From Planctomycetota bacterium (GTDB lineage Bacteria > Planctomycetota > UBA8108 > SXIK01), in contig OZ244999.1 of NCBI GenBank assembly GCA_965223265.1, positions 2,752,001-2,816,000 of the forward strand: 64,000 bases of DNA. Reading direction: 5' to 3'. The notes beneath the pieces are model-generated. The model did no database searches. It worked only from the letters and a program-made list of their open reading frames with translations, and was not told the DNA's origin. Below are positions 32,391 through 56,146 of this stretch, piece after piece (within the stretch, counting starts at the first letter, position 1; every line of letters begins with the position of its first letter). A program made the translations under genes and the position numbers.

Positions 32391-32446
32391 TGCTGAGTCC
32401 CACAAACTCTGGCTCGTGAGCAGCGACGAGTCTCAGATTCACTGAC
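32391..32446 (+). repeat. Left transposon end with two transposase-binding-like repeats
   Basis: AGTCCCACAAACTCTGGC (32396-32413) and AGTCTCAGATTCACTGAC (32429-32446). Confidence 0.8.
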
Positions 32447-32631
32447 CCGGAAACGCCCCGGCATACCCCGCCGAACCGACCGTCCGATCATACCCCGCCT
32501 ACCCCGCGCCCCCCGTTCGACGCTGCGCCCTGGACCTTCGCTCGACTCCTCGCCTCACCTCGAGTAAAGAGGGGAGCGGAGAGACCGGTGTTGGTGCACT
32601 TCTCTCCGCAAGTCCCCGTACGGAGAGAGCG

Positions 32632-33300: not shown

Positions 33301-33340
33301 GCGAGAATCACGCCTCGCTCGCCCCATGCGAGGTGTGATC

Positions 33341-34903
33341 ATGAAAGCGAAAGATCTCGATTGGGCTATCTTCTGGGCGGCTCTTCTCCAGCCCGTCGTC
33401 ATCGGCGAGGTGCCGGAGGAGGAAGCCGCGCGATTTCTCCGCGAGCTCGCCAAAGAAGAGCGCATCTTTCCCGACGGATCGCGACGCAAGCCGGCTCTTT
33501 CGACCCTGAGGCGGAAGCTTCGCATCTATCGCGAGGAGGGCTTCGAGGGTCTTGCCCGCAGGCCGCGAAGCGATCGCGGGAAACCGCGTGCCCACGGCAA
33601 AGAGCTCGTCGAGAAAGCCGTCGAGCTGAAGCGTGATCAGCCACTGCGCTCCCACTTCGCCATCAACAAGTTCCTCCAGGCTCAGCACGGAAAGACCATT
33701 CCGCGTTCGACCCTCTTCCGCTACCTCAAGATCGCCGGCGCGACGCGGCTGAAGCTCGGTGTCGAGAGGAGGAAAGTCCGGAAACGCTGGACTCGTGACT
33801 CCACCCATGCCCTCTGGGTCGGCGACTTCGCCGATGGACCCTACGTGCTGCACGACGGCGAAGTCGTCCCCACCTTCCTCTGTGTTCTCATCGACTGCTA
33901 CAGCCGCTCGCTCGTCGAGGGGCGCTACTACCTTCGGCAAAATCTCGAGGTCTTGATCGACTGCTTGCTGCGGGCGTGGGCCAAGCACGGTGCTTCGGAC
34001 GAGCTCTATGTCGATCAGGCGAAGGTCTATATCTCCAAAGCGCTCAAGGCGGCATGCCTTGCCGTTGTCACCCGGCTCATCCATCGCGGCAAGGGCGATC
34101 CGCCACCGGGTGGTCTCGTCGAACGACTCATCGAGACGATACAGGGCCAGTTCGAGGCCGAGGTCAGAGCCGGCGAGATCCTCACTCTCGACTCGCTCAA
34201 CGGAAGCTTCGATTCCTGGAAGACCGTGGCCTACCACCGCCAGGTCAACACCGAGACCGGCGAAACACCCGAGGCACGAGCCGAGGCCGGCCTCAAACGG
34301 CCTATCCGACACGTCGACATTCAGCGCGTCACCGAGTTCTTCATGTGCCGCGAGACGCGGCGCGTTCACCCGGACTTCTCCGACGTCCAGCTCGATCGCC
34401 GCTTCTATCGCGTCGACAAGAGTCTGCGCGGTGACAAGGTCGAAGTCCGCTACGATCCCTTCTCCGCGCCCGACACGGTTCTCATCTACTCCAGCAACGA
34501 AGAGTACCTCGGAAAGGGCGTCCTTCACGAGCGCGAAGAGGGCGAGGACGCCGGTGCTCCCGCCCCTCCCGCCAAAGCGAAGCACAACTATCTGGAGCTT
34601 CTTCGCCGTGAGCACGACGAGGAGCTCAAGAAGCGCGCCCAGGGGATCGACTACCGTCGTGTCATCGCCTCTCGCCAGTGGCCCTTCACCGACTTCGCAT
34701 GCCTTCTCGGCCGGCTCATGGGGCGCAAGGGCGCCCTCTCGAGCTTCACCGCCGAGGAGCTCGAGGAACTCAAGAAGTTCTACAACCGTACTCCCAGCCT
34801 CACCGAAGTCCTCTTGCTGAGGGCCTTCGAGAAGGCTCCGGAGAAATCCATTCCCTACATCGCCTACGAGCTTCAACGACTCGCAGGCAGAAAGGAGGAC
34901 TGA
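33341..34903 (+). CDS. DDE transposase/integrase (rve core, Mu-transposase C-terminal-like domain)
   Basis: N-terminal HTH with GLARRPRSDRG. Catalytic motifs WVGDFADG, LYVDQAKVY and GLVERLIETIQ. C-terminal LRGDKVEVRYDPF. Confidence 0.93.
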   Translation: MKAKDLDWAIFWAALLQPVVIGEVPEEEAARFLRELAKEERIFPDGSRRKPALSTLRRKLRIYREEGFEGLARRPRSDRGKPRAHGKELVEKAVELKRDQPLRSHFAINKFLQAQHGKTIPRSTLFRYLKIAGATRLKLGVERRKVRKRWTRDSTHALWVGDFADGPYVLHDGEVVPTFLCVLIDCYSRSLVEGRYYLRQNLEVLIDCLLRAWAKHGASDELYVDQAKVYISKALKAACLAVVTRLIHRGKGDPPPGGLVERLIETIQGQFEAEVRAGEILTLDSLNGSFDSWKTVAYHRQVNTETGETPEARAEAGLKRPIRHVDIQRVTEFFMCRETRRVHPDFSDVQLDRRFYRVDKSLRGDKVEVRYDPFSAPDTVLIYSSNEEYLGKGVLHEREEGEDAGAPAPPAKAKHNYLELLRREHDEELKKRAQGIDYRRVIASRQWPFTDFACLLGRLMGRKGALSSFTAEELEELKKFYNRTPSLTEVLLLRAFEKAPEKSIPYIAYELQRLAGRKED

Positions 34904-35694
34904 TGTTCACCACCCATTTCAAGATGACGACGCAGCCCTTTCTCGAGCGCGCGCCCGTCGAGCAGATTCTTTCCGACGAGCGCATCACCCAGGGACTCGC
35001 TCGACTGGAGTACCTCGCCAAGTCGGGCTCGATCGGCCTGGTGACCGGACTCACCGGGGTGGGGAAGTCGTCTCTGGTGAAGCTCTTCGTGCGCTCGCTG
35101 AGCCGCAACCTCTACGACCCGATCTATCTCTCGCTGACCTACGTCGGGGCAAACGGCATTCTGAAGCTCCTGGTTTCCAGCCTCGGCGAGCAGCCCCGCC
35201 GTGGCAAGGAGCGGCTCTTCCTCCAGATCCTGGATCGCGTCGGGGCGAACGAGCACACGACAATCCTCGTCATCGATGAAGCGCACCTGCTTCCTTCGGA
35301 GTCGCTCACCGATCTGAGACTTCTGGTCAGCTCCGGACTCGAGGACGGCCCGCCATTGAAGATCCTCCTCAGCGGACAAGAGACCCTGAGAAAGGAGCTT
35401 ACCCGAGCGCGCCACGCCGATCTCACGCATCGGCTCAGCGTGCGCTACCACGTGCCGCCGCTCAGCAAGGAGCAGACGGTCGAGTACATCGACTTTCAGA
35501 TGCGCGCAGCCGGCGCCTCGCAGAAAGTCTTCGAGCCTGAAGCGAAGTCGCTCATCCACGACTACTCAAGCGGCGTGCCGCGGCGCATCAACAACATCGC
35601 CACCGCCTGCCTCATTCAGGCCGCGAGCAAGAACGTCCAGAAGATCTCCGAGGCGCTCGTCAACGACACCGCCCCCGAGTTCCATCTGCCCTGA
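34903..35694 (+). CDS. ExeA-like AAA+ ATPase (transposition helper, TnsC/MuB/IstB-like role)
   Basis: TGATG coupling to the transposase. Walker A GLTGVGKS, Walker B LVIDEAH, LSGQ and SSGVPRRIN. Confidence 0.93.
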   Translation: MFTTHFKMTTQPFLERAPVEQILSDERITQGLARLEYLAKSGSIGLVTGLTGVGKSSLVKLFVRSLSRNLYDPIYLSLTYVGANGILKLLVSSLGEQPRRGKERLFLQILDRVGANEHTTILVIDEAHLLPSESLTDLRLLVSSGLEDGPPLKILLSGQETLRKELTRARHADLTHRLSVRYHVPPLSKEQTVEYIDFQMRAAGASQKVFEPEAKSLIHDYSSGVPRRINNIATACLIQAASKNVQKISEALVNDTAPEFHLP

Positions 35695-35713
35695 GAACGG
35701 AGACTGACGCGCC

Positions 35714-36007
35714 ATGTTCCACAAGACCCTGATGCCTCGAGTCAACGACTTCGCCGAGTATCCTGAGCTCGCCGTTTTGATGACCCTCGCGACGAACCTC
35801 GAGATCGCCCTGTTCGCTCTGAACGCCGCGTACCCCGATCTCGACTTCGACTACACGCAACGCTCCTCCTACACCGAGCAAGACGCCTATCTCGCCGCCT
35901 TGGGCGCTCAGCTGCGAGCGCTCCAGATCGTCCTCGAAGAGTATCTCGAGAGCCTGCAACGAATCCGATATTTGAAGGCGCCGAGCGGTGGAGGTGGCGT
36001 CGCATGA
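35714..36007 (+). CDS. Small helical hypothetical protein inside the transposon
   Basis: GGAG RBS. ATGA overlap with the next gene. Confidence 0.7.
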   Translation: MFHKTLMPRVNDFAEYPELAVLMTLATNLEIALFALNAAYPDLDFDYTQRSSYTEQDAYLAALGAQLRALQIVLEEYLESLQRIRYLKAPSGGGGVA

Positions 36008-36321
36008 CAGGACGATTCTCCGGCAAGCTCCTGCGGTCGTTGAGAAACGATATACCGATCGCGTGGCTCCTCGATCTGCTCGGCGTCCCCGCGAAAATCT
36101 CCGAGGGCTACGTGCGCTTCCTCTGTCCGCGGTGTCGCGAATTCAACACCGCGACGAAGGCGTCCACCAACCTCGCGCGTTGCTTTCGCTGCGAGACGAA
36201 CTTCAACCCGATCGACCTGGTCATGATCGTCAAGCGGCTGAATTTCGTCGACGCCGTCGAGTTCCTCGCCGAGCTCCGCGATCGTCGCGGTGACGCTCGC
36301 GCCACGCCTCGCCCTTCGTGA
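36004..36321 (+). CDS. Stand-alone primase-type (CHC2-like) zinc-finger protein
   Basis: FLCPRC...NLARCFRCETNFNPIDLVM...FVDAVEFL matches the DnaG zinc-binding-domain pattern. Confidence 0.85.
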   Translation: MTGRFSGKLLRSLRNDIPIAWLLDLLGVPAKISEGYVRFLCPRCREFNTATKASTNLARCFRCETNFNPIDLVMIVKRLNFVDAVEFLAELRDRRGDARATPRPS

Positions 36322-36409
36322 TTCCCCGGGTCGTCGTGCCGTCCGGGACACGACGACCCGCGCCTTCTCGCCTCGCAAATCGCATCTCGCACCCGCGAAT
36401 CAGCACCAT

Positions 36410-36455
36410 GCCATTTAATCTGGGATTTCCGCGCCAGATACTGTGGGACTTAGCA
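36410..36455 (-). repeat. Right transposon end with two transposase-binding-like repeats
   Basis: Minus strand AGTCCCACAGTATCTGGC (36450-36433) and AATCCCAGATTAAATGGC (36427-36410). Confidence 0.8.
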
Positions 36456-37183
36456 GTTTTGTGCTGCTCTGGGGTGTATGTCCAAACTCCACCGCTGGTG
36501 TCGAGGTCGACGGCTCGTAGGGGAAGGAGCTCTCCGGATCGCGCGCCGCTGAGACTTTGGAGCTCAACCAGTGCCCAAACTTCGCTTGAGACATGCGGCC
36601 GAATCGCCGCGACGTCTCTCTCGGCAACAGCCTTCACGGGATCTGGCTCGCGCGCACCGGAGCGTCCACGCTGCAGTCCTCTTACCGTCTGGAGCGCATG
36701 ATATACCTTCGCGTCGACTAACTCTTCTTCGCCCGCCCACTTGAAGACGCGCCGCAAGCGATTCATTGCTTGATTGATCGATGAGCGGGCTAGCCCCCTT
36801 TGAATCAAGCGTGCCCGTACGGTCTTCATCTTCCGTGGGCCGAACTCAGCGGCGGGTGACTCACCGTAAAGCTCGGCGAGCGGACGAAGCACCACCTTGA
36901 AGTTCTCCGTCTCTCCCGTGGGGGACCCGTCTGCCCTTCTGTAATGGAGCTTGGCGTGTCTGAGAAAGCGAGCGGCAAGCTCTACGATCGTCAGATCGCT
37001 TTGGGCCACCGTAACCTCGCCGTTCGCCTCCCACTCGGCAAGGACCTGATGGTACTCCTGGCGGCTCTTTTGCGTTCCGTAGAGCCCGAGGTAGTGACGG
37101 ACTCCGTTCAGCTCGACGAATGCGAGATCGGAGCCGTTGCTGCGCTTCTGCCTGCGGTACGAAGGTGAGCTTCGCCGAATCAT
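36456..37183 (-). pseudogene. Tyrosine integrase of element A, N-terminal part
   Basis: PSYRRQK..AFVELNG..HYLG.YG, FGPRKMK, SGARSGEL (catalytic R) and YTPEQHKT. RBS GGGAGG. Confidence 0.92.
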
Positions 37184-37229: not shown

Positions 37230-37297
37230 ACAGTGGGTTACAGCCGCTCCCCCATTGAGGGGGGTATCCTAACACAAGGATTCAGCGAGGTTTAAAA

Positions 37298-37342
37298 TGG
37301 TGGGCGTTACTGGACTTGAACCAGTGACCCCCAGCTTGTCGA
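37298..37342 (-). tRNA. 3' fragment of tRNA-Val(GAC) acting as att core (not a complete tRNA)
   Basis: Minus strand TCGACAA GCTGG GGGTC ACTGG TTCAAGT CCAGT AACGCCC A CCA gives anticodon loop, T arm, acceptor 3' strand and CCA. The 5' half is absent. Confidence 0.88.
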
Positions 37343-37498: not shown

Positions 37499-38707
37499 GT
37501 GATTTCCTTTGGCAAGATCCGGCGGCGCAAATTGCACGGTCGGTTGACGTCCACTTACTGGGTGCGTTGCTGGGATCCGCAGCGAAAGAGGCAGTCCTGG
37601 CGGAGTACCCGATGTAAGACGATCCAGGCGGCAAGAGAGTGGGTGCGGACGCAGGAGGTCCGACAGGCTCTCGGCAAGGATCGCCAGGAAGCGGTGGAGC
37701 AGGCGGAAAAGACTTTCGCGGCTGCCTACGCCTCCTGGATCGGGCAGAAGCGGGAAAAAGTCTCCGTGAAATGCTTTCAGACGCTGAAGTATCAGGGCGA
37801 TCACTTCTGGCTTGGATTCTTTGGAGAGAGAGCTCTCTCTGAGATCGATACGGAGCTTGTTCAGGAGTATCAGAGGAAACGCAAATCTGGAACGATTTCA
37901 CATCCAGATGAGACACGACGAAGACGAATACGACGAATCGGTGAGGTCACGCTCAACAACGATCTAAGACACTTCGGAAACCTGCTGAAATACTGTCGTC
38001 TCAGGGGATGGATGGATACGAACCCGCTCGAAGGGATCTACCGTCACTCGGAACAGATACGCAAAAGGACTCGGTACATCTCTCGTGAGGAAGAGGAGCG
38101 ACTGTTGAAGGCATGTCGTGAACCAGTCGTCACGCAAGTCTCCGCGAAACGCAACAAAGGCGGGCGACGTGGTGGGGTGGTCTCCAACGATCCCGTCACG
38201 TTTCAGCAAAAGGTTCCGATCCCTGATTATCTCTACCCACTCGTGCTCACCGGGCTTCGAACTGGTTTGCGCAGACGGACACTCCTCTCGCTGTGCTGGA
38301 GGCATGTCGACTTTCAGGGGCGACGCTGGCGAATTCCGGCTGAGCTGATGAAATCGCGAGAAGATTACTGTGCTCCCATCGCACAATCCGTCGTTGACGA
38401 ACTGAGGAGGTATCGAAAGCACCTGAGTTTGAGCCCGAAACGTGTTCATCCGAGTGCAACGATCTTCGGGCTGACGCCGGATTCTGAGTTCAAGCGTAGC
38501 TTCCGCAACGCGGTGAAGAGAGCCAAGCTTACGCTACGGTTTCATGACTTGCGCAGAATCTTTCTTAATCGCTGTCGGGAAAAAGGAATCAGCATCGAAA
38601 CGGCGATGGCGCTCACGCAGCATCGTAGCCTTGCAACCGTGCTCAAGCACTATCGTGAGGTTCCCCAGAGGGATCTTGAGCACGCGGTAGACGCCCTTGA
38701 CGGTTAG
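37499..38707 (+). CDS. Tyrosine recombinase/integrase of element B
   Basis: Catalytic set TGLRR, MKSR, FHDLRR, TQH and KHY. SAM-like TLNNDLRHFGNLLKY...NPL. Basic arm-binding N-terminus. Confidence 0.93.
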   Translation: MISFGKIRRRKLHGRLTSTYWVRCWDPQRKRQSWRSTRCKTIQAAREWVRTQEVRQALGKDRQEAVEQAEKTFAAAYASWIGQKREKVSVKCFQTLKYQGDHFWLGFFGERALSEIDTELVQEYQRKRKSGTISHPDETRRRRIRRIGEVTLNNDLRHFGNLLKYCRLRGWMDTNPLEGIYRHSEQIRKRTRYISREEEERLLKACREPVVTQVSAKRNKGGRRGGVVSNDPVTFQQKVPIPDYLYPLVLTGLRTGLRRRTLLSLCWRHVDFQGRRWRIPAELMKSREDYCAPIAQSVVDELRRYRKHLSLSPKRVHPSATIFGLTPDSEFKRSFRNAVKRAKLTLRFHDLRRIFLNRCREKGISIETAMALTQHRSLATVLKHYREVPQRDLEHAVDALDG

Positions 38708-38720
38708 GCTCGACTGTTCT

Positions 38721-38972
38721 TCATCGTCGCCGTCGTGGATGTCGTCGTTCGTCGGGCGCTGTGCACGGATTCTCATCGAGGAACCGTTCAAGCGACGACT
38801 GCGAGACACGGATCAGCACGCCAACTCGGATTGCGGTGAGCTTCCCTTCAAAAATGAAGCGTCGAACCGCAGATTCGTGGATCTGAAGAAGGTGCGCGAC
38901 CTGCTGCACCGAGAAAAGACGAAGGGAGCCTGGAAGATCGGCCGTTGAGCTCTGTTGGGGAGTGGTGCTCAT
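38721..38972 (-). CDS. Excisionase-like HTH_17 DNA-binding protein
   Basis: LFSVQQVAHLLQIHESAVRRFIFEGKLTAIRVGVLIRVSQSSLERFL. Convergent with the integrase. Confidence 0.88.
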   Translation of the reverse strand: MSTTPQQSSTADLPGSLRLFSVQQVAHLLQIHESAVRRFIFEGKLTAIRVGVLIRVSQSSLERFLDENPCTAPDERRHPRRRR

Positions 38973-39442
38973 GGTGGATCCCCCGCAAGTGATGTGGTCT
39001 CTGAGTGGTCTGTAGGTGCGCGACACGCTTCCCGCAATAGCGGCAACACCTCAAAAAGAAACTCCCGGTACAGCTCCTCGCTGAGAACTCCCTGCGCCCA
39101 AGCAGCACACAGGCGGAACTCGAGGGCTTCGACAGCCTGCAGGTTGTGGACGTCCGAACGGATGCGAACGAGCGTCTCTTCGATCTCAAGCTGCGCTTCG
39201 AGGACTTCGATGACGTCGGGAATCTTGGCGTCGACTCGGGCTCTGACGGCGCTAGGCACGACCTCGGCCGGCGGTTCATAGCAGACGACGGTGGTGCCGT
39301 CGGGTCGATGGAGCTGGTGGGGGCTCCTGGCCGCGGGCCGGAAAAGCGAGATGCACGAGGCAGAGATGGCGACGAAAAGCAGCGCCGTGAGCGTCACGGC
39401 GAAGGTTATGAGTGAGCGGGTTGGAAACCGTACGCTGAGCAA
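38969..39442 (-). CDS. Putative lipoprotein, translationally coupled to the excisionase
   Basis: AGGAGG 5 nt before TTG 39442. Hydrophobic stretch ending ISASC. Stop overlaps the excisionase ATG (ATGA). Confidence 0.65.
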   Translation of the reverse strand: MLSVRFPTRSLITFAVTLTALLFVAISASCISLFRPAARSPHQLHRPDGTTVVCYEPPAEVVPSAVRARVDAKIPDVIEVLEAQLEIEETLVRIRSDVHNLQAVEALEFRLCAAWAQGVLSEELYREFLFEVLPLLREACRAPTDHSETTSLAGDPP

Positions 39443-39504
39443 AGAAACCTCCTGAAGAGTCTGAGAGAGTATCAAAGACTGACGCGGGCGTGCGCGATGC
39501 ACGC

Positions 39505-39524
39505 TTCCACCTCTTAGTTGCCGC
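39505..39524 (-). promoter_or_regulatory. Element-specific promoter-like motif, copy 1
   Basis: GCGGCAACTAAGAGGTGGAA, shared with 56105-56146, 56358-56390 and 59805-59843. Confidence 0.6.
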
Positions 39525-39637
39525 AAACGGCGGATGTGCGAAACGGAATCTGGGAAGTTTTTCGACGTGACGATTGGCAGCTGAGGAGTCAGAGCGAAAC
39601 CCAGTTGATCAAACGAGATGGGTTGAACGACGAACGA

Positions 39638-39830
39638 GCGCCCTCTCCCCCGGCGCTGCGCGCCGCTGGCGGCTCGGGCCGTCCTCGGTCTTCGCTCCGC
39701 GGCGAGACGCGAACGCCGCGAGGCGTCGTTCGCTCAGACGCCGCTGCGCTACGCCCTCGGATGCGGCCTCGCCACCAGCGGCGCGCAGCGCCGGGGGAGA
39801 GGGCGCGTGGTGCTCCGGCTCACCACGCGC
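39638..39830. repeat. Large inverted repeat / branched hairpin (32-bp perfect arms)
   Basis: GCGCCCTCTCCCCCGGCGCTGCGCGCCGCTGG (39638-39669) is the exact reverse complement of 39775-39806. Internal hairpins are present, plus an overlapping 10-bp IR at 39803-39830. Confidence 0.9.
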
Positions 39831-39865
39831 AGCTCTCAGTTCATGTGCCCGTCGCCAAGGGCGTG

Positions 39866-40867
39866 TCAGTCGCCTTGCTCCAGTTTGATGCGGCTGGCAA
39901 GCTGCCCCACGGGGATCTCGCGCCAGTCGTGCTCGGCGCGCTCGAGGGTTTCTTGCAGCCAGGCGTCGTCAAGATCGTTGATCCGCTCGGCGTACTGGCT
40001 GTTGCCATCGGCGCCGCGGCGGCGTGAGTAGTGGCGTAAGGATTCATCGAAGCGCACCTGCTGGTGGGTGCCGAGCTCAAGGAGGATGTTATAGAGGCGC
40101 CGTCGGGCTGGGTCGAGCCGACGTGGCTGTCGTTTCGTGACAGCGCCGGCCGGTGGGCGTGCCGAGGGTGTCTCCTGTTCGCCGCGGCGGCCAAAGTCGA
40201 CGGCGGCGACGCCATCCTTCGTGACGCCGGCGGCGCGCACTTCCTCCCAGGTGATGCCGCCAAGCCCGAGGATGCATTTGACGGCGCGGATCTGGGCGTT
40301 CGTGACGGCCTTCTTGCGCACCGCGCTCAGATCGATCTCCGAGAGCGGCAATCTCTTGCCGCGGCGGCGTGAGAAGAAGCTCTCGCTCGAGCTGGCCACT
40401 CCTTCAACTTCAACTCGGCGGCCGAGGAAGCGAGCGGTCGTGCGGGCCACGTAGCGGATGACGTCGCTTCCGCCAGCGTCATCGCGTACAGCCTTGACGC
40501 GTGTGCCAGTGAGGCTGACGCCGAAAATCGCGGCGATTTTCATGCAGCCGGCTGTGCCAAGGTAGGGTTGGCCGCCAACGTTCGTCCAGTCGCCTCGCGT
40601 TGTGGCGCTCAGCGCGACGCGGCGGAGCCGAACCACGTTGGGAAGGGCGGCTTCGAAAGCGGCAAGGTCGGCGTCGGTGACGGAAGCCGTTCTGTATGCG
40701 CCGGTTTGGTGGGCGTTGCGGCGATCATCGTCGCGGCCGACGATCGCTTCCGTGCGAGCTGTCGCTTCTGCGTCCGGTAGGGACGGAGCGTCTGAAGCGC
40801 CTCCCACATCGAATAGTTCCGATGCAAGAGTTGCGGAACGGGTAGAAACGACGGTAGAGTTTGGCAT
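39866..40867 (-). CDS. Putative phage-type single-strand annealing protein (Rad52/ERF-like fold)
   Basis: RBS AGGAGG. DW..VGGQPYL...GCMKIA..FG, then strands RYVARTTARF..RVEVEGVASS, then helix VRKKAVTNAQIRAVKCILGL. Flexible linker and small C-terminal helical domain. Confidence 0.6.
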   Translation of the reverse strand: MPNSTVVSTRSATLASELFDVGGASDAPSLPDAEATARTEAIVGRDDDRRNAHQTGAYRTASVTDADLAAFEAALPNVVRLRRVALSATTRGDWTNVGGQPYLGTAGCMKIAAIFGVSLTGTRVKAVRDDAGGSDVIRYVARTTARFLGRRVEVEGVASSSESFFSRRRGKRLPLSEIDLSAVRKKAVTNAQIRAVKCILGLGGITWEEVRAAGVTKDGVAAVDFGRRGEQETPSARPPAGAVTKRQPRRLDPARRRLYNILLELGTHQQVRFDESLRHYSRRRGADGNSQYAERINDLDDAWLQETLERAEHDWREIPVGQLASRIKLEQGD

Positions 40868-40924
40868 AGCTGCCTCCTGAAAAGGTGGTGGTGAATGGAG
40901 CTCTGCTTGTCAGCGAAGACACAT

Positions 40925-41153
40925 GGCGGAGCTCCGCCTTCTTGTTCTCCCGGACCGTCCAAGGAGAACGCCGTTGTGGTCGCAGTTGAGCACGCGCAGC
41001 ACTGCGTGATGCTGACTTCATCGAAGAGAACGAACATCGTCTGCTTTCTTTCGAAGAAGCATCCCACGGTGCCGCTGACGCTCACACGTCAGTGTGCGAA
41101 GAAGAGAAAGCGCGGATCAATCACCGCGAGCATCTCTTCAGCGCACGATCAAC
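40925..41153 (-). ncRNA. Candidate structured leader/ncRNA of seven consecutive hairpins
   Basis: Stems at 40925-40938, 40944-40969, 40981-41006, 41008-41038, 41042-41061, 41075-41092 and 41094-41146, downstream of a minus-strand TATAGT (41165-41160). Confidence 0.45.
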
Positions 41154-41236
41154 TGCACTACTATAACTTTAAAGTCTCACAAACAAGTTTCAACAAAATA
41201 TTCTGTACATCGGAAAATTTCTCATAGAATCTAATC

Positions 41237-41416
41237 ATGACAAAGAAAAAGAAGAAAAGAGGACGACCCAAGGTCGCGAGATCAAAGTTCAAAGGCAAGA
41301 TTGTCAACCTCCGCGTCACCGACGCGGAACATCGATTGATCACCCGCGTCGCCAGGCGCGAGGGACTCACCGTGGCGGAGTGGATGCGGCGGTTGATTCT
41401 GGCGGCGGCGGAATAG
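41237..41416 (+). CDS. 59-aa ribbon-helix-helix protein (MobC/CopG-like) with AT-hook-like N-terminus; below the ORF-track cutoff
   Basis: MTKKKKKRGRPKVARSKFKGKIVNLRVTDAEHRLITRVARREGLTVAEWMRRLILAAAE. TAGAAT at 41225-41230 lies 6 nt before the ATG, suggesting a leaderless mRNA. Confidence 0.85.
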   Translation: MTKKKKKRGRPKVARSKFKGKIVNLRVTDAEHRLITRVARREGLTVAEWMRRLILAAAE

Positions 41417-41479
41417 CTGCGTAGAGTGCATGGGTCCGGCGAACCGCGTCGGTACAGCGCACTTCTGTTCGGCTCGCCG

Positions 41480-41790
41480 ACGGGAACACCCCCTGCTACC
41501 TCACCGCGTCAACTTTTTTCACCGTTTCATCTACGTGCGCGACGCCACGCCTTCGAGCAAGAATTCAATCCGAGGACGTCGTTCAAGAAGCTTTGCTCAA
41601 GGTGTTCGAACGCGCTCGTGTTTTTCGTGGATCTGATGAGAGAAGCCACTGGAGCTGGCTGACGAGCATCTCTGGGCACCTGATCTCGAACGCTTCACGC
41701 GAAGATCCTTTCCGGGGAAATCGCTCACGTTGGAGGATTCTCGTTGGGGGCGTCCTGCGCCGCTTCCAGGCGATCAGATCGACGGCGTAA
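41480..41790 (+). pseudogene. Degraded planctomycete-type ECF sigma factor (region 2 remnant)
   Basis: HRFIYVR, then a frameshift, then TPRLRARIQSEDVVQEALLKVFERARVFRGSDERSHWSWLTSISGHLISNASR. No intact region 4. Confidence 0.6.
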
Positions 41791-42370
41791 GGTGCAAGCG
41801 CGTGGCGGCCAACCGAGCCTCTCCTTAGTACTTCGCCGGTCCCCCGGCGCTGACTGAAGTTTCGATCTGCAACGCAGAAGAACTCTGCGAGGAGGATTCT
41901 CACCTTTAACGTCAACGCTTTCTTTGCCGCTGCAATCGAAACGCCGGAGGCGCTGTTTCCTGCCGTTGAGAGGAGCCCGATCTGGCGGCGAGCCTGTGAC
42001 CGAAGCCAAGATCAGAAGAAGTCCCCATTCCCGAAAGTCGTGCGGACGTCCAAGCACCATCACTCGAGCCTTCCGTCCTGGGAAGGACTCTTTCGCTGAG
42101 GTGTCGGACCACTGGTACGCCGGTGAGTCGGACGGAAATTCATGATTGATTCTTCCTCAATCCATGACAACCTTTGTTCAGTCGATTCCTGATACGCGGA
42201 TTGCTTCATGAACCAAGAATCATCTTCAGTCATCCGTCTTGTGCATCTCTGTTCGTGCACTCAGCTTGGAAAGGATTGCGACTGGTGCCAGATACGGTCA
42301 CAGTGGCTGCATTCGCAGTGGCGCTGCCGCTGCGTGCGGCTGAAAGTTCAAGCTTAGTTCAGGAAGAACA

Positions 42371-42904
42371 GTGGTGATTCCAGACGTTACACTCCATGTC
42401 GAGGAAACGGACGATCCCGCGTTCGCACGGTTTGTGCTCGCCGCCTTGCACCGGCTTGGTGAGCTCTACGAACCAGTGGCGAGTTACGTCGTGAGAATCG
42501 ACAACTGGTTCAGCCAGCGGTGGCTGCGGTTTTCTCACAAGTGTCTCGGGTCGTTCGGAGTCGCTTCTTCAGAACTTGTGATTCCTCCGTTCGTTCCGAA
42601 TCGTGTCGTCTCAGAAGATTTCTTCGGCCGACTCACCGACGAGCCAATCGCGCTGCACCGCCACCAAACCAGCAGCTCCAACGCGTCAAGAAGACTGAAG
42701 AGTCTGGTGCCCCAAGCAGCCTTGTTCTGGTGGAGCGGTGGCTCCAAGGCGAACGGTCGCGGCTCGCTAATGGCCTATCTGCCGACGATTGAGGGGCACG
42801 TACCAACGTACGTCGAGCTGAAACGCGGTGAGGTGTGGTCTGTCGTCACATGCGTTGGCGTCGATAGCCGCGTTCTCCGCGAGATACTCAACACCGAATG
42901 TTGA
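42371..42904 (+). CDS. Hypothetical protein
   Basis: AGGA RBS. 177-aa ORF with a globular pattern (VVRIDNWF..WLRFS...PPFVPNRV). Confidence 0.65.
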   Translation: MVIPDVTLHVEETDDPAFARFVLAALHRLGELYEPVASYVVRIDNWFSQRWLRFSHKCLGSFGVASSELVIPPFVPNRVVSEDFFGRLTDEPIALHRHQTSSSNASRRLKSLVPQAALFWWSGGSKANGRGSLMAYLPTIEGHVPTYVELKRGEVWSVVTCVGVDSRVLREILNTEC

Positions 42905-42918
42905 GCCGATCGCGCAAA

Positions 42919-45900
42919 CTACCACCCCAACCCCACCGACGCCAACTCCTCCCGGATCGCCGCGATGTCCCACAGGCGCACCTGTCTTTCGCGCAAGACG
43001 AGGACTCCCAGATTGTTGCCGTCTGGGGTGAACTGGATGCGGGCGACCGGTGCTTGGAACGTGCGCTGAAAGAGCGGTTCCCACTCGTTGCCTTTCCGCC
43101 GGAGCAGCCGGACTGTTCGATCTCGTCCGGCCGTTGCGATCAGGTTCGCCGCGGGGGAGATGGCGACGGAATTGACACGCACGGAGTGCGACGGGAGTCG
43201 TACCCCTTCCGTGAGTCTCAGACTTTCGTCGACCTGTACGGTGAAGACTTTCCCGGAGTCTGTTCCGACTACGAGCTCGGCTCCGTCCGCGCTTGCCGAC
43301 ATTGCGGTGATTGGATTGGAGCGCGACGTCGAGAGTATGTGGCTGACTTGGCCGTCGGAATCGAGTGTCTTAAGGAGTCCGTTGTCTCCTCCGATGGCCG
43401 CATAGCGCTCAAGCACAACGGCTGCACCTATGCCGGGGACTCCTGCCTCGTCGGTGTTGGTAAAGACCGTAGTGGTCTCTGACTCGCCCGGTAGCCAGCG
43501 AACGAGCTTGTGGCCGTGTCCTTCCCCGCAGGCTGCCCACAGCACTCCGCGGGCGAAAGTCAGCGACTTCGTTCTTCTCTCCATCGTTGGGCGCAAGACG
43601 GCCGTGTGTCCAGGGCGCCAAATAGCTAGCGGACTCACACGATGGTCGTCATCTTGCTCCATGTAGAACGCGACGAAATCTTCATCTGCACTTAGCGCGA
43701 CGAAGGCCGGTTTGTCCAGAAGACTAGCTGTCGTTGTTTTCGACGCAACCGGGCCGACATGTGGCGCGTTACGAGTACTCCAAAGAGCGACGACGTTTTC
43801 CGACTCGTCACTGCTGACCGTCGCCATGGAGTCGCCCGACTTCGAGAAGGCAAACGACCGGACAGGACGCTCCTGGACGGCGACTGATCGAAACGGAACT
43901 CGCGAGCTTCCTACGCGTGAGATTTCTGGTTTTCCTACTTTGTAGACTATGCTCTCGAGATTCTCGGTCACAGCAAGTCGGTGGCCGTCGGGACTGAAGG
44001 CTATGAAGACGTTTCCCATCCCGGCCACGGGAATTCGCGCCAGCAACTCACCCGTTCCTCGATGCCATAGCTTCGCGGAACCGTCATTGGAACCTGAGAC
44101 GAGCAGCACTTCGTCAGTGCTCAGGTCGAGGCTGCGAATGTCTTCCGTCCTCGCGTGCGCGTACCCAAGATGAGGATCACGAAAAGTCTGGAATTCGACC
44201 ATGTCTGTGTCGACACAGACCAAATCACCGTTCGAGCCGAGGACGAGATTCCCAGTTGACGGGATGAAGAGAAACTTGTTGATCCCTACCTTGAAGCGAT
44301 TGAATGGTCGACGGGTATGCTTTCCGATGCTGGGATCTTGAAACTGTACGAGCCCGTCATTCCCGGCCCAAAACACGATTCCAGTGGTCGGCGCTGCTCG
44401 AACTTCTCCGGCCATCCCTGGATAGGCGTACGAGAAACTCCAAATAACCTCACCAGATTGATCGTCGATGGCTCTGATGAAGTGACCATCTGAGATCAGG
44501 AGAACGTTTGGCGTCGGCGTGAGTTTGATGTCCCGCACCCAACCGGTCATGTGGGTTAGCTGGGTAAACTCCTCAGGGACGTCAACATCCCTCCACGAAA
44601 GGATAGCCCTCGACCGTACGCCCACGAACAATCCGCGGCTGTCCCGCGCGAACTGAAGCGCGCGCACGCCGCGAGCCGAGAGAGGAAGAGTAAGCTCCTT
44701 ATGTTCCTTCCCGGTGACAGGATCGTACAGCTTCACAGAGCACGGCCCCTCTCGCACGTTCTGACCGATCGCGAGGCGTCGACCGTCTGGACTGAACGCA
44801 AGGGTGTAGGCATCGATTCCTACTGCTAAGGTGTGTTCCTTCTCGAGGTCGTACATGGACGAGACGCTCAAGTAGAGACTCCGCAGTTCGTAGTCGTCGC
44901 GAGCGTCGATGTCTGCTGCCGTGAGATCGTGAAACGATGCGAGGGTCTGGCTGCGGAACCCCAGACGCGGGTCGTGAAGGAGCGTACGGATGTCGCTAAT
45001 CGCCGCGTAGTAGTCTCCGATTCGCTTGTCTCTGGCCAGCAAGAAGCTCCATATGGCGAACGCCGAGAGCGCCGCGAGCAGCGCAAGGGTGACGACGGTC
45101 ATCGGACGACGTTTGCAGAACTTACGCGCTCGGTAGCCGAGAGAGGGCGGCGTCGCTTCGACGGGGAGACCGTGCAAGAATCGTTCGACGTCCGCCTTGA
45201 GCGCCAGCGCCGAATCGTATCGTCGCCCGCGTTCAAGCGCTGTGGAGGTCATAACGATGTTGTCGAGATCCGCCTTGATGCCTCTTGCCGTGGACGCCTT
45301 TGAAGCGACCTTGCTTGGGAGCGTCAGGTTGCCCTCCAAGATTTGCGCTCGCATCGACTTCTCACTCCGCGTCCATGGCAGTCGATCGGTAAGGATTTCA
45401 TAGAGAACGATCCCGAGTGAATAGACGTCATCTATGACATCCTCTGAGTGATCGGGCTCATCGATGCGCTCAGGGCTCATATAGACGAGCGTTCCGATCG
45501 GCTGCCCTTCGCGGGTCAGGTGATCCGTCGAGTCCATCGTCTTAGCGATCCCAAAATCGAGGATGCGCGGGATCGGTGGCTTTGGTTCGCGCTGGATCAG
45601 TATGTTCCCTGGTTTCAGGTCGCGGTGGATGACGCCCTTTTGGTGGATGCTGTGGACGCCTTCGCACACCTGGCAGAAAAGACGCAGGCGTGCGTCGAGC
45701 GCGATGTTTTCCTCACGGCAGTAGTCCGTGATCGTCGGGCCGTCGATGAGGTCCATGACCAAGTAAGGGCGTTTGTCCGGGAGTCTCCCGGAGTCGTGTA
45801 CCGTGGCGACGTAGGGCGACGAGAGCCCAGCAAGGATTTCCCCCTCGAGGAGAAATCTCTGCGTCATACGATCGGAGGGACTCGCGATCACTTTGATCGC

Positions 45901-46209
45901 GACTGGGCGTTTGAGATTTGCCTGTTTGGCGCGATAGACGACTCCCATACCGCCACGCCCAATTTGCTCCACTATGTGGTACTGGTCGATCTCCGATCCG
46001 ACGAGGTCCGCCGGTGCGGCGGCCGCGCTCGCAAATGCATCGGTCTTCAAGATCGATGGCATTCTATGATAAGCGCGAATCAACTGTCGGGCATCCTCGA
46101 CCTCGGCGCTCTTGCCGTAGGTTGTTTCGAGCTGGCGGATCGCTTCGTCTTCCGGCAGATGAAGGAGTGAACCGACGATGCGGTCGACGGCGCTGCGATC
46201 AATCGGCAT
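42919..46209 (-). CDS. Ser/Thr protein kinase with TM helix and WD40 repeats
   Basis: IGRGGMGVVY, VAIK, IHRDLKPGNI, LDFGIAK and GTLVYMSPE. WD40-type AFSPDG and DRTVRL repeats. Confidence 0.95.
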   Translation of the reverse strand: MPIDRSAVDRIVGSLLHLPEDEAIRQLETTYGKSAEVEDARQLIRAYHRMPSILKTDAFASAAAAPADLVGSEIDQYHIVEQIGRGGMGVVYRAKQANLKRPVAIKVIASPSDRMTQRFLLEGEILAGLSSPYVATVHDSGRLPDKRPYLVMDLIDGPTITDYCREENIALDARLRLFCQVCEGVHSIHQKGVIHRDLKPGNILIQREPKPPIPRILDFGIAKTMDSTDHLTREGQPIGTLVYMSPERIDEPDHSEDVIDDVYSLGIVLYEILTDRLPWTRSEKSMRAQILEGNLTLPSKVASKASTARGIKADLDNIVMTSTALERGRRYDSALALKADVERFLHGLPVEATPPSLGYRARKFCKRRPMTVVTLALLAALSAFAIWSFLLARDKRIGDYYAAISDIRTLLHDPRLGFRSQTLASFHDLTAADIDARDDYELRSLYLSVSSMYDLEKEHTLAVGIDAYTLAFSPDGRRLAIGQNVREGPCSVKLYDPVTGKEHKELTLPLSARGVRALQFARDSRGLFVGVRSRAILSWRDVDVPEEFTQLTHMTGWVRDIKLTPTPNVLLISDGHFIRAIDDQSGEVIWSFSYAYPGMAGEVRAAPTTGIVFWAGNDGLVQFQDPSIGKHTRRPFNRFKVGINKFLFIPSTGNLVLGSNGDLVCVDTDMVEFQTFRDPHLGYAHARTEDIRSLDLSTDEVLLVSGSNDGSAKLWHRGTGELLARIPVAGMGNVFIAFSPDGHRLAVTENLESIVYKVGKPEISRVGSSRVPFRSVAVQERPVRSFAFSKSGDSMATVSSDESENVVALWSTRNAPHVGPVASKTTTASLLDKPAFVALSADEDFVAFYMEQDDDHRVSPLAIWRPGHTAVLRPTMERRTKSLTFARGVLWAACGEGHGHKLVRWLPGESETTTVFTNTDEAGVPGIGAAVVLERYAAIGGDNGLLKTLDSDGQVSHILSTSRSNPITAMSASADGAELVVGTDSGKVFTVQVDESLRLTEGVRLPSHSVRVNSVAISPAANLIATAGRDRTVRLLRRKGNEWEPLFQRTFQAPVARIQFTPDGNNLGVLVLRERQVRLWDIAAIREELASVGLGW

Positions 46210-46780
46210 CGTATGAGGCCAGGAGACGCGAGAGTTTCGCTTTGGCGAGGCGGTTATCGCGCTCGATAGTTCCGAGTGAGACGTCGAGGCACTTTGCGAT
46301 TTCTTCCATGGTCAGTCCCGCGAAGAAGCGAAGTTCGACGACCGAGAGCTGGCGTTCGTTCTCGTCTCCCAGCGTGGTGAGCGCAGCATCCAGGTCGATG
46401 AGCTCGTCAGCGGAGTAGCCGCGGCGCTCGCCGATTCCGGAGAGTGCCGTTCGCTCTTCGATGTGCTCACGCTTTTGCGCCTTGCGGTATCGTGCGCGGT
46501 CGACGAGAAAGTGCCGCATGGCCCGCGCCACGTAACGTAGAAGTTCCTCTGGGCCGCGTCCAGAGGATTTCCCTTTGACGCGCAGGAACACTTCGTGCAC
46601 GAGCTCGCAGGAGTCGATCGTTGGGCGAAACTCTGCCGCAAGCATCGAACGCGCGAGTTGCCGCAGGTCGCTATAGAGCGCTTCGAAGACGGCGTTCGTC
46701 GGTGTAGATCCCTCAGCCCAAGCGAGTTGGGCCAGCGAACGTCGTATGCGTGTGACCAGATCATGGTCGTCGACGGCCAT
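46199..46780 (-). CDS. ECF-type sigma factor (kinase-associated, TIGR02999-like)
   Basis: LYSDLRQLAR...ELVHEVFLR...AMRHFLVDRAR..KAQKR...VVELRFFAGLTMEEIA..L.VS..TIERD. Overlaps the kinase start. Confidence 0.93.
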   Translation of the reverse strand: MAVDDHDLVTRIRRSLAQLAWAEGSTPTNAVFEALYSDLRQLARSMLAAEFRPTIDSCELVHEVFLRVKGKSSGRGPEELLRYVARAMRHFLVDRARYRKAQKREHIEERTALSGIGERRGYSADELIDLDAALTTLGDENERQLSVVELRFFAGLTMEEIAKCLDVSLGTIERDNRLAKAKLSRLLASYDAD

Positions 46781-46930
46781 TGATCAACCTTGCCCCGCCG
46801 ATCTCTCGATTTTTTGTTAAGGGTGAGGAGCGGTTCTTACGCCTTATTCGGTAGTGGAGCATCTTACTCCACTGCGGGGCATGTGTGGGAGCGCGTTCTA
46901 CGCGGGTTCTTTTCGTTCGGTTTGGGTGGG

Positions 46931-49900
46931 ATGAAATCGATGGAATGTACGCGATGGTCGGCGGCGAGTTACGTCGCCTTGTGGATCTCTCTTGGGTCGT
47001 TTGTCGCTTGTTTGCAGCCGGTTTGGGCACAGTCGAACTTTAGGCGGGGCGACTCGAACGTCGACGCCGATTTCGACATCAGTGACCCGATCTTCACGTT
47101 GAGTTTTCTGTTTGTGGCTGGCTCGGCCGCGCCGGAGTGCCGGGACGCAGCGGACTCGAACGACGACGGCGAGCTCGACATCTCCGACCCGATTCATTCA
47201 CTTTCGTATCTGTTCGCCAGTGGTGGAGCTCCTCCGGCGCCGTTTCAGGTGTGCGGAACTGATCCGACCGCGGACGAGCTGGAGTGTGTACGCTTTGTCG
47301 TGTGCCCATCCGTCCCGCCGCCGTCGCCGACGATTCTGCCGCTCGAGCGAGTGACGCGGGACGACGCCGTCGAGGTCTCAGGCACGGCAGAGCCGGGGAC
47401 GTCGATCGAAGTGGTGACGGGAGACCAGATCGTTCGCGGTGACGCTGCGGATGGATCGTACTCTCTGACTGTTCCACTTCACGAGAACCGACTGAATCGA
47501 CTGTTCGTGACGGCGGTGACGTTCGACGGCGTGAGAAGCGCCCCGGCGACGGCGCAGGTCACGCAGGATGGGCAGCGTCCGTCCGTTTTCATCGATTTTC
47601 CCGCACAGAGCTCGCAGCTTCCGCTTTCGGAGGTGACGGTGGTCGGTCGCGTCAGCGACATGCTGAGTGGATTCATGGGGCTCGACGTGACCGTCAACGG
47701 CCAGGCTGCCAACGTAGACATCGGTATAGGGACCAACGGGACGTTCGAGCGGGCGGACGTGCCTCTGGTGCTCGGCGCGAACCTGATCACGGTGGTTGCC
47801 ACGGACGGCGTCGGGAACCAGGCGATGAAGAGTATCAGCGTTACGCGAATTGAAGCGACCGGGCCAAGGCTCGAGATCGTTTCGGGAAACAATCAGAGCG
47901 GGGAGGTGCAAAGCACTCTCGCCGATCCTCTGGTGGTTCGGTTTGTCGAGGAAGATGGGACGCCGGTGTCCGACACATCCCTGGTGTTTCGAGTCAAGCG
48001 TAGTGACGGTGTTCTCTCGCTGGCCGAGAACGGTGAGACAACACGTCGCCTTGAGATGACAACCGACGCAGCGGGCGAAGCCAGCGTGTTCTACAAACTC
48101 GGAACCGATGCGGGCTGCGGGAACAATCGGGTCGAGGTCTCAGCAGGCCAGTCCAGTCTCTTCTTTTGTGCGACCGCCACTCCGTCGGCACCTAAGCAGA
48201 TCAACATTGGTTCGGGAAACAATCAGAGGGGCGAGGCTGGCGGACCGGCTGTTGAACCTCTCCGAGTCTGGGTCAGCGACGGGTGCAACGGGATTGTTGA
48301 TCAAGATGTAACGTTCACCGTGACAAGGGGAAGCGGCACGGTCAATGGAGCGGAGAGCGTGACTGTGCGTACGGTAGACACAGGCCATGCCGAAGTGTCC
48401 TTCGTGCTGGGCTCAGAACCAGGAAACAATGTGGTTGAGGTGAACTTTCCTGGCAATACGACCTCGCCAGCGTCCTTCGTCATCTTTGGTGTTGAAAGAG
48501 ACCAAACGCATCCTACGTCCTTCTCAGGGCTCGTACTCGACAATAGCAGCCAGCCGCTCGAAGGGGCTTCTTGTTCGCTGGTTTTTCCAGGCCAAGAGCC
48601 TTTGACCGAGATTTCCGACGTCAACGGGCAGTTCCGCTTTCCCGACGTGCCAGGTGCAGGTGCCGCTCATCTACACGTGAACGGACTCTCTGTGAATCAC
48701 CTTGGAGGGGAAAACGGAAGGTCGGTCGATCCCGGCAGCTTCCCTGCTCTTTCGTATGAAGTCTGCTTAGTTCCGAACGCAGAGAACTCGCTACCGACTC
48801 CAGTTCTCCTCCCGCCACTGGATCCACGGAATGCTCGCACCTATGACGGAACACGCACGGTTGAACTGACTGTCGAGGGCATCGAGGGCCTGAAAATGAT
48901 TGTCCGGGAAGGAACAAAGGTCACGCTCCTCGACGGCTCAATCGTGGATGGAACGGACGGCAACTCAACAACTCTCGCTCTCAATCAGGTCCACCATGAT
49001 AAGGTTCCCATGCCAATGCCGGACGGAGCGGCTCCGCCGTATGCCGGGACCCTTCAACCGGCGGGCGCTACTTTCGATCCGCCCGTGCAAATCATCTATC
49101 CGAACATGAGCGGGTTGGCTCCTGGTTCGCTTACAAATTTCATGAGCTTCAATCACGATACCGAGCGATTCGAGATCATAGCGACTGGACAGGTAGATGA
49201 GGGTGGCGAAAGCATTATCAGCGATCCCGGGACAGGGATCAGCGTGGCGGGATGGCATTGTAATTGTCCGCCGTATTCGGTTACGGGGCAGTGCCACTCC
49301 TGCGTGAATGACCCACAGATTCTCAACCAGATCGCACAGTTGAAAGCTCAACAGCTTCAGAAACTCGCCGAGGCTGCTCAGCACCTTCAGGACGGGAGTA
49401 ACGCTCTGTCTCTCGCAGGCTTGCCAATTGCCCAGGCTGCTGCCCACATCTCATTCGTCGCAGCGGGGATCGCCGCATGCGGAGCACGTGGATGCCCAGT
49501 CACAGTCATCTCATGCTTGGCGTGTGCGCCGTTGATCGCACCCCTCCTTGTCGACCTCCAAACGCTAGGGCCGGGGCATGCGTTCCAGGCGGTCAGTAGA
49601 CTTGTCGAGGCTGCGTCTCACTTAGCTGACGCCGCTTCGTCGCTGGGGCTCGCCTTGGCACGTGCGATTGAAGCGATTCAATTAGCGGCCCAAATTGCGG
49701 TCTTATGCCCTCCATTGGCGGTTCAGAATACCGGGGAAGCCTTACGCAGAGCAATCGAGGCCGTCAGAAACGGAACTTTGGCAGGTCTTCAGGCAAAGAT
49801 CAACCGCCTGCAGCCGATTGCGAGTCGGCTGTTACGAGCAGTGCAAGCTATACAGGCATGCCTTGATTCGGGTTTGGTTTCTTGTGTCTTTTCGCCGTTT

Positions 49901-56075: not shown

Positions 56076-56104
56076 GGGTTCACGAGCGTGCAGAGAAAAA
56101 GATT

Positions 56105-56146
56105 CTCCACCTCTTAGTTGCCGGAAGTAGCCCCTGAGGTGATGTG
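56105..56146 (-). promoter_or_regulatory. Element-specific promoter-like motif, copy 2 (upstream of primase-helicase)
   Basis: CACATCACC-N15-GGCAACTAAGAGGTGGAG. Confidence 0.65.

Follow-up and report, generated by a model that had tools for sequence, protein, structure and literature searches.

What is the role of the hairpin-rich stretch of about 285 nt that precedes the gene of a putative single-strand annealing protein (annealase) in a planctomycete of the GTDB lineage UBA8108; SXIK01? The stretch lies in a window of 64,000 nt (contig OZ244999.1 of assembly GCA_965223265.1, positions 2,752,001 to 2,816,000), which is part of a single 9.18-Mb contig; coordinates given below are those of the window unless marked as genome positions. 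Positions 40868-41165 are located between a 333-aa open reading frame (ORF) on the minus strand (39866-40867) and a divergently oriented 59-aa gene of the ribbon-helix-helix (RHH) type on the plus strand (41237-41416). Along the minus strand, an AT-rich promoter stretch (41193-41160) is followed by ~285 nt of GC-richer non-coding DNA, the AGGAGG motif (40879-40874), and the ATG codon at 40867. The region is non-coding, unusually structured, and without a known Rfam family. We describe here its structure, how far this structure is conserved and differs between strands, which fold the downstream protein adopts, and the island in which the region is located. In our estimate, chances are about even that the region combines a structured leader with a cis-antisense RNA of ~80 nt, which would block translation and would be paired with an RHH repressor.

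The region occurs in the genome three times, as part of a module that extends from an xis-like gene to the RHH gene. GC3-like periodicity (GC3 being the GC content at third codon positions) in 40940-41119 hints at an ORF, and two long ORFs traverse the region. Inside it, the three copies are distinguished by two indels, of 4 and 7 nt, and by an ATG/GTG change. Every candidate frame is broken between the copies by these differences, so that no reading frame is conserved across the region and a coding function or a leader-peptide attenuator was rejected. The original prediction, made from the sequence letters, had also seen no convincing ORF and no known riboswitch here; both statements proved correct, with 0 matches to Rfam covariance models at E<=1 on both strands of 38000-44000. 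Dispersed repeats of the repetitive extragenic palindromic (REP) or miniature inverted-repeat transposable element type were rejected as well. When five hairpins and one stem arm of the leader were each searched for in the genome, full matches were confined to the three module copies, other matches being of <=16 nt; these six segments are therefore not REP-like repeats.

The RNA of the minus strand, hereafter the sense RNA, has a minimum free energy (MFE) of -121.1 kcal/mol versus -104.0 ± 5.3 kcal/mol in shuffled sequences (z = -3.22). The corresponding values for the plus-strand RNA are -134.2 kcal/mol and z = -6.38. None of 200 shuffles was as good on either strand, as expected for the structured element that had been proposed. 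With DNA folding parameters, the z scores are -5.67 (plus strand) and -2.89 (minus strand). The genome control comprised 600 GC-matched 298-nt segments of the same genome taken on both strands; 0.8% of these 1,200 strands fold as well as the sense RNA and 0.08% as well as the plus strand.

A repeat finder detected an interrupted stem at 41094-41107/41133-41146 (14 nt, 86%), an arm pair at 40987-41013/41058-41084 (27 nt, 70%), the GGAGCTCTGC/GCGGAGCTCC arms at 40897-40906/40926-40935, and a palindrome at 40925-40938. Four of the features named in the original prediction were recovered by this finder. The CGCAGT/ACTGCG stem is missing from the MFE structure. The 5' part of the latter consists of a long-range stem (40976-40989 with 41149-41161) around hairpins 41094-41146, 41076-41091, and 40999-41072; the 3' part includes hairpins Hd (40943-40970) and He (40893-40941), followed by a small hairpin at the Shine-Dalgarno (SD) sequence (40873-40888). 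This arrangement is common to the folds of both strands. The seven back-to-back hairpins originally described are thus right with regard to strong structure but not with regard to independence, since three hairpins are enclosed by the long-range stem. The alifold consensus of the three copies contains 99 pairs, with four one-sided wobble changes, one compensatory pair, and one broken pair. By strand, five are kept and one is broken in sense, and four are kept and two are broken in antisense; the choice of strand is undecided from these three copies alone.

Relatives of the leader were searched for at other loci. A protein-based search revealed 14 loci in metagenome_contigs, one in viral_contigs, and none in genome_contigs. 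An nhmmer profile of the three copies gave two matches at E<0.01 among 19 loci, namely the metagenome loci L014 and L013. The covariance model of the SD-proximal 110 nt, applied to 17 sources, yielded five matches at E<0.001: the three own copies, L014 (27.3 bits, E = 5e-5), and L013 (24.0 bits). The next match, in L020 (E = 0.07), is at a non-equivalent place. The SD-proximal block is conserved at ~50% protein identity. This comparison covers 17-19 loci or sources, most members of the annealase family (contigs of P0003-P0016) being outside the set. A strict pattern for the He module gave two matches in genome_contigs, both regarded as chance since they are in GC-rich stretches with no annealase gene nearby; in viral_contigs, both this pattern and a looser one gave 0 matches. 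Conserved and covarying structure upstream of homologues is thus present for the SD-proximal end in L014 and L013 and absent for the 5' domain of the leader and for loci L012 and L021.

On the plus strand, the conserved block appears to contain all parts of a small transcription unit (~80 nt), predicted as follows:

40831 to 40860, plus strand: predicted antisense promoter within annealase codons 3-13, with -35 TTGCGG (40831-40836), an 18-nt spacer, and -10 TAGAGT (40855-40860).
40869 to 40892, plus strand: 5' hairpin of the predicted antisense RNA, with the anti-SD CCTCCT (40874-40879) in stem and loop.
40893 to 40941, plus strand: hairpin He, with arms GGAGCTC(T/C)GC (40897-40906/40926-40935) and apical GTC-N6-GAC (40908-40921).
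40939 to 40948, plus strand: T-rich tail after He, TTCTTGTTCT in this genome and TTTTTGTG in L014 and L013.

In the plus-strand alignment, the block common to both lineages starts exactly at GTTGCGG (40830-40836) and stops at the T-rich tail. Its order is GTTGCGG, the 18-nt spacer, CGGTAGAGTT, CAT (40865-40867), CCTCCT, the 5' hairpin, He, and the tail. GTTGCGG and CGGTAG(A/G)(G/C)TT are invariant in all five sequences (the three copies, L014, and L013), while the spacer and the DNA upstream of the -35 box differ between lineages. The predicted antisense RNA would start near 40866-40869 and span 40866-40948, and would therefore cover both AGGAGG (40874-40879) and ATG (40865-40867). In these genes, with a GC3 of 0.90, rare A/T-ending codons are located exactly at the -10 and -35 positions. 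Codon 4 of the L014 gene is the sole TCT among 69 Ser codons and supplies the A in TAGA of the -10 box; its codon 12 is GCA (6 of 74 Ala codons) and supplies the first T of TTGCGG. Codon 4 in L013 is the sole CCT among 39 Pro codons. The loose pattern TTGNNN-N16-18-TANNNT has a base rate of 0.122 per kb per strand in this genome.

The antisense 5' hairpin has seven pairs and is paired in all five sequences, with two pairs changed on both sides and two on one side. Three of its pairs in the three copies of this genome are G.U or U.G, which correspond to A.C mismatches in sense. He, the GGAGCTCC hairpin, is kept in sequence in 5/5 cases; in the window copy it has three U.G pairs that are valid on the plus strand only. 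In our reading, it would be the stem of the terminator in the predicted antisense RNA; it folds in the sense leader too. The inner palindrome of He together with the tail was flagged as terminator-like on the plus strand, and the tail read in sense is a conserved ACAA(G/A)AA tract. A stable plus-strand fold of two hairpins with a T-rich tail after He, as in terminators, was found in all five sequences. The SD-proximal 87 nt of this genome fold with -36.9 kcal/mol (z = -3.87) on the plus strand versus -23.8 kcal/mol (z = -0.49) in sense; this asymmetry is due to the G.U pairs within the 5' hairpin and He. Antisense z scores for the same segment are -3.27 (copy 2), -3.68 (copy 3), -3.47 (L014), and -4.91 (L013).

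In place of the annealase start codon, L013 (411-413) has AGG, and the ORF as called by gene finders continues across the leader (P0012, 429 aa). With the same two base changes, the 5' hairpin of the predicted antisense RNA grows from 9-10 to 12 pairs.

The sense strand has elements of its own:

41160 to 41193, minus strand: sigma-70-like promoter of the leftward operon, with -35 TTGAAA (41193-41188), a 16-nt spacer, and -10 TAAAGT (41171-41166), as given by the scan.
40976 to 41161, minus strand: 5' domain of the leader, a long-range stem around three hairpins; hairpin 41094-41146 has an inner stem at 41111-41128.
40943 to 40970, minus strand: hairpin Hd (GTTCTCC...GGAGAAC), directly upstream of the conserved A-rich tract.
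40874 to 40879, minus strand: SD sequence AGGAGG of the annealase gene, 6 nt before the ATG at 40867.

The leftward promoter is the sole promoter-like site flagged in 40500-41600 (9/12 match). Its boxes are invariant in the three same-genome copies, and transcription is predicted to start near 41153. The -10 box proposed earlier, TATAGT (41165-41160), is an overlapping alternative to TAAAGT; this box, the AGGAGG motif at 40879-40874, and the ATG at 40867 were all located on the minus strand, as originally reported. TTGATA-16-TACAAT is present at the equivalent place in L014 and L013. The leaders that follow are of ~230 nt and multi-hairpin (z = -3.4 in L014 and -2.2 in L013). The 5' domain of the window leader is not alignable to these two loci, each of which has a multi-hairpin 5' domain of its own. 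Non-coding DNA upstream of the promoter in L014 (700-1100) is crowded with long inverted repeats and includes a third GGCGGAGCTCCGC copy, which precedes the two in the leader by ~470 bp.

L014 and L013 each have a hairpin at the position of Hd that differs from it in sequence: both sides are changed in 7 of 11 pairs, in an alignment of Hd and the module that was fitted to the model and includes two independent lineages only. For the whole module, 94% of cells are paired versus 86% in shuffles and 41-47% in slid controls. Hd of L014 contains two adjacent G.U pairs, which are mismatches if read on the other strand. Between L013 and L014, all seven substitutions in paired columns of the sense consensus keep the pair via G.U; antisense folding fits only two such changes and reduces one helix from 15 pairs to 5. 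The upstream hairpins thus have the look of a real leader on the sense strand. The SD sequence has a predicted unpaired probability of ~0.2 in all lineages, a value without background control. The idea of a structured non-coding RNA or cis-leader is thus partly supported: it suits the substitutions on the sense strand, while the conserved end that adjoins the ribosome-binding site makes better sense if read on the plus strand.

Two further features are located on the other side of the promoter:

41237 to 41416, plus strand: divergent RHH gene, 59 aa, matching Pfam NikA-like PF21983 at 2.2e-8 and, more weakly, RHH_7, DUF6290, and TacA1.
41193 to 41206, no strand assigned: AT-rich 14-bp palindrome, which reads ACAGAATATTTTGT along the minus strand; copies 2 and 3 have the perfect form ACAAAATATTTTGT.

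The RHH gene is a candidate transcriptional repressor of the module, as judged from its domain. It was found at the three copies in this genome only; tblastn revealed no RHH homologue near L012-L014 within the available flanks. The palindrome abuts the -35 box of the leftward promoter, base 41193 being part of both, and is a candidate operator. The RHH gene has no SD sequence, while a TAGAAT box is present ~10 nt before its ATG; it may therefore be leaderless.

These elements can be arranged in the following model, in which the two RNAs, their start and end points, the outcome of their pairing, and the target of the RHH protein are all predicted. On the minus strand, the sigma-70-like promoter near 41190-41160 would yield a folded 5' leader of ~285 nt for an operon that encodes the annealase, a membrane protein, and an excisionase-like HTH protein. 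On the plus strand, a weaker promoter in annealase codons 3-13 would constitutively yield a cis-antisense RNA of ~80 nt, which would begin approximately at the annealase start codon, carry the anti-SD in its 5' hairpin, and end at the GGAGCTCC hairpin and the T-rich tail. Once paired with the last ~80 nt of the leader, this RNA would keep ribosomes from binding or make the duplex a substrate of RNase III, or do both; annealase and excision functions would then stay silent in the integrated island. Further repression, at the level of transcription, would come from the divergent RHH protein, acting on the leftward promoter at the AT-rich palindrome.

A number of points speak against an antisense unit. 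Its promoter displays a ~7/12 match to the E. coli consensus, which may not suit planctomycetes, and was not flagged by a consensus promoter scan that needs 9/12. No terminator was flagged in a terminator scan of L014 and L013, and the tail is interrupted in this genome (TTCTTGTTCT). The block is partly coding: residues S4-T5 and S11-A12-T13 are common to the proteins too, and some of the conservation may therefore reflect protein. Both arms of He are self-palindromic, which fits DNA operators equally well. The comparison includes only two independent lineages and one alignment (A10) fitted to the model, while L012 and L021 are without the module and have unrelated leaders of ~87 nt and ~200 nt. 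The three copies add little evidence because their identity is mosaic and the leader is about as alike as coding DNA. No RNA runs are on record for 40600-41500, the DNA of which is carried as contigs by four runs of one study. The SD-proximal segment of L014 folds about equally well in sense (z = -4.27), and He is extended in this locus by an A-U and two G.U pairs in sense only. The latter extension would suit a leader that acts in the mRNA only, with no antisense RNA, its GGAGCUCC stem being recognised by RNase III or by an RNA-binding protein (perhaps the annealase) that sets translation or stability, as in the N leader of lambda. Sense folding above chance (z = -3.22; 0.8% of genome strands), the wobble pattern in L013/L014, which favours the sense strand, the covariation of Hd with its sense-specific pairs in L014, and an SD sequence predicted to be mostly paired are all in line with such a leader. 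This explanation does not account for a conserved block that reaches into codons 3-13, where rare codons occupy -10/-35-like positions, for the conserved A-rich tract before He, or for the sense z of -0.49 versus -3.87 in antisense over the SD-proximal 87 nt of this genome, and we consider it rather unlikely.

We give little credence to DNA-level sites, that is, to a role of the two GGAGCTCC palindromes, and possibly of further inverted repeats, as operators or recombinase sites on double-stranded DNA, with RNA folding as a by-product. The He arms are indeed self-complementary and conserved in sequence and not just in pairing, and L014 has the third GGCGGAGCTCCGC copy upstream. These palindromes are located ~190-250 bp downstream of the only promoter-like site, however, and the distance between their centres, 31 bp here versus 28 bp in L013/L014, does not preserve helical phase. 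In addition, CGGAGCTCCG is not enriched in the genome (36 observed versus ~26 expected), no DNA-binding gene shared with L013/L014 was found (the RHH gene being absent there by tblastn in the flanks available), and pairing of Hd is kept despite a different sequence and loop length. Equally improbable is a hairpin-rich spacer with no dedicated function, kept by descent and gene conversion among three recent copies. It would explain the mosaic identity, alike in leader and coding DNA, a 5' domain not conserved outside this genome, and the inverted repeats in GC-rich non-coding DNA upstream of the L014 promoter. It conflicts with folding at the 0.8 and 0.08 percentiles of GC-matched segments, with conservation of the SD-proximal block at ~50% protein identity, and with helix changes that preserve pairs. 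A folded single-stranded DNA (ssDNA) element, also suggested in the original prediction, would serve as an ssDNA promoter, priming site, or origin of transfer (oriT) when the island is single-stranded. The plus strand, which is the annealase template strand, folds best with DNA parameters too (z = -5.67), the neighbouring RHH protein scores as NikA-like, and the island has a DUF3854/DUF927 primase-helicase-like gene. The promoter boxes are outside the hairpins, at odds with an ssDNA promoter of the Frpo type or an oriT. Relaxase PF03432, the sole relaxase family searched for, was not found in the genome (91.65% complete), and Pfam detected no conjugation or phage structural genes in the island ORFs scanned. 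Wobble-preserving changes point to RNA, and this proposal retains scarcely any probability. T4 gp32 is known to regulate its own mRNA, and the leader, the antisense RNA, or both might similarly be partners of the annealase, which would bind the GGAGCUCC stem or the duplex for autoregulation or as a recombination cofactor, with the 5' domain possibly acting as an antiterminator through a 36-bp hairpin to the excisionase gene; we regard this combination as very improbable. A comparison of the leader with the att regions of the island, made with regard to a guide-like or bridge-RNA-like role, gave longest matches of 7-9 nt, no better than shuffles.

The preferred model, a structured leader with a cis-antisense RNA and an RHH repressor, has counterparts among mobile elements, for which an antisense RNA over the ribosome-binding end is a familiar way to silence recombination and excision genes. 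Copy number of plasmid pMV158 is reported to be controlled by the RHH repressor CopG and the antisense RNAII at the translation start of repB (PMC4485353). The two systems would share a small RHH repressor, a short cis-antisense RNA that can pair with the translation initiation region of its target, and a hairpin with an intrinsic terminator in this RNA (here predicted). In contrast to pMV158, the target here is an annealase/excision operon on a chromosomal island instead of the rep gene of a plasmid, the RHH gene is oriented divergently and not co-transcribed, the ~285-nt leader has a large extra 5' domain, and the system is known from sequence alone. Reports on insertion sequences (PMC5006887; PMC4513863) describe IS10 RNA-IN/RNA-OUT and IS200 tnpA/art200; in IS200, mRNA secondary structure and a cis-encoded small RNA both suppress translation. 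As in these elements, the predicted antisense promoter lies at the 5' end of a recombination gene and reads outward over its SD sequence and start codon. The differences are a tRNA-integrating island with a tyrosine integrase, an annealase instead of a transposase, and no sequence similarity or Rfam match.

The 5' domain may have another kind of counterpart. The canT element of Tn916 (341-452 nt, at least six predicted stem-loops; PMC11658703) and put of HK022 (PMC9378689) are described as cis-acting processive antiterminator RNAs. Like these, the leader would be an RNA with several hairpins, some hundreds of nucleotides long, that directly follows an early promoter of a mobile element, and the strong hairpin 39638-39806 before the excisionase-like gene would need read-through. 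There is no sequence or Rfam similarity to canT or put, and conservation of the 5' domain does not extend beyond this genome. By analogy, it is possible that this domain acts as a canT/put-like antiterminator, which would make sense of the 36-bp hairpin. The N-leader of lambda pL contains nutL and an RNase III hairpin adjoining the ribosome-binding site of N. In both cases, a leftward early operon adjoins int/xis opposite a repressor gene (here a candidate one), and a leader of >200 nt has a hairpin near the SD sequence that modulates translation (here a prediction); no N-like protein or boxA/boxB was recognised here.

The genes of the leftward operon are as follows:

39866 to 40867, minus strand: gene of the Rad52-fold single-strand annealing protein (P0001), 333 aa, assigned by AlphaFold and Foldseek.
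38969 to 39526, minus strand: 185-aa ORF with a hydrophobic segment, same operon, assigned from its translation.
38721 to 39026, minus strand: excisionase-type HTH_17 gene, same operon (HTH_17 at 2.6e-9).

The sequence of P0001 has no meaningful match in Pfam, PHROGs, or PDB. An AlphaFold model built from 12 relatives has a core (residues 61-225) with a predicted local distance difference test score >80. Foldseek aligned this model with the N-domain of human RAD52 (8bjm, 1h2i, 8rjw; probability 1.00, E ~1e-4) and, more weakly, with Sak of phage 80alpha (8qe9; probability 0.99, E = 1.1e-3) and yeast Mgm101 (9yi9; probability 1.00, E = 4.6e-3). The model displays the beta-beta-beta-alpha annealing fold of the Rad52 N-terminus, which supports assignment of P0001 as a Rad52-type annealase at the level of fold. 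Of the earlier proposal of a link to a Rad52/ERF-like protein, the fold has thus been retained, while a specific functional link to the annealase protein is unsupported. The N-terminal 60 residues are disordered, and the C-terminal domain is helical. Relatives of P0001 form 15 clusters in a collection of 5.8 billion sequences; a sample of 400 genomes of the phylum contained only four weak protein matches, and phage records contained one related hypothetical protein, from an uncultured phage. Longer fused forms were not found, which is weak evidence.

In the operon, the annealase gene is followed by a very strong hairpin (39638-39806), the 185-aa ORF (a putative membrane protein), and the excisionase-like HTH_17 gene. 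The hairpin starts right after the annealase stop codon and has 36-nt arms, 97% complementary, around a self-folding 97-nt spacer. The surrounding 311-nt region (z = -7.4) is 97-100% identical in the three copies, and no such hairpin is present downstream of the annealase gene in L012, L013, or L014. It lacks a T-rich tail and is therefore not a classic terminator.

A 45-nt exact direct repeat at 37298-37342 represents the 3' end of tRNA-Val(GAC) (genome 2827461-2827537; L029 5461-5537), which places the module at the left end of an island of ~38 kb. The stretch 37263-37342 (81 nt) also matches genome 4174547-4174627 at 98.8%. Two further island genes were assigned by the Pfam scan:

37499 to 38707: tyrosine integrase, which adjoins the left attachment site (attL) and is followed by the leftward operon.
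53487 to 56330: DUF3854/DUF927 primase-helicase-like gene.

The integrase, the HTH_17 gene, attL, tRNA-Val, and the RHH gene form a context that fits a control region for excision and recombination. The three occurrences of the module share ~90% identity. Copy 2 corresponds to ~9 kb at 91% identity (39019-48236 versus genome 6056147-6065866) and includes genes for a WD40 Ser/Thr kinase and an extracytoplasmic function sigma factor (PF07638), both in keeping with a planctomycete; copy 3 is homologous over 38729-41442 only. Stretches of 100% identity beside stretches of ~80% along the module suggest gene conversion between copies. A 4,065-bp insertion element (32391-36455) with a Mu-transposase_C/rve gene and an AAA ATPase gene has 10 near-identical copies in the genome and appears to split an older integrase gene (fragments 31931-32491 and 36230-37183).

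To our knowledge, little is known about the control of excision and recombination in genomic islands of planctomycetes. No regulatory RNA family is known to us for Rad52-type annealase genes, the region being without a match in Rfam, although no literature search was made on that precise point. The annealase itself belongs to a rare family beyond Pfam and PHROG coverage. Even if the model fails, the region is still among the most structured non-coding stretches of this genome. If the model is true, compact control by an RHH protein and an antisense RNA, as known from plasmids and insertion sequences, would act on the annealase/excisionase operon of an island, and would provide an example from a phylum with few characterised small RNAs.

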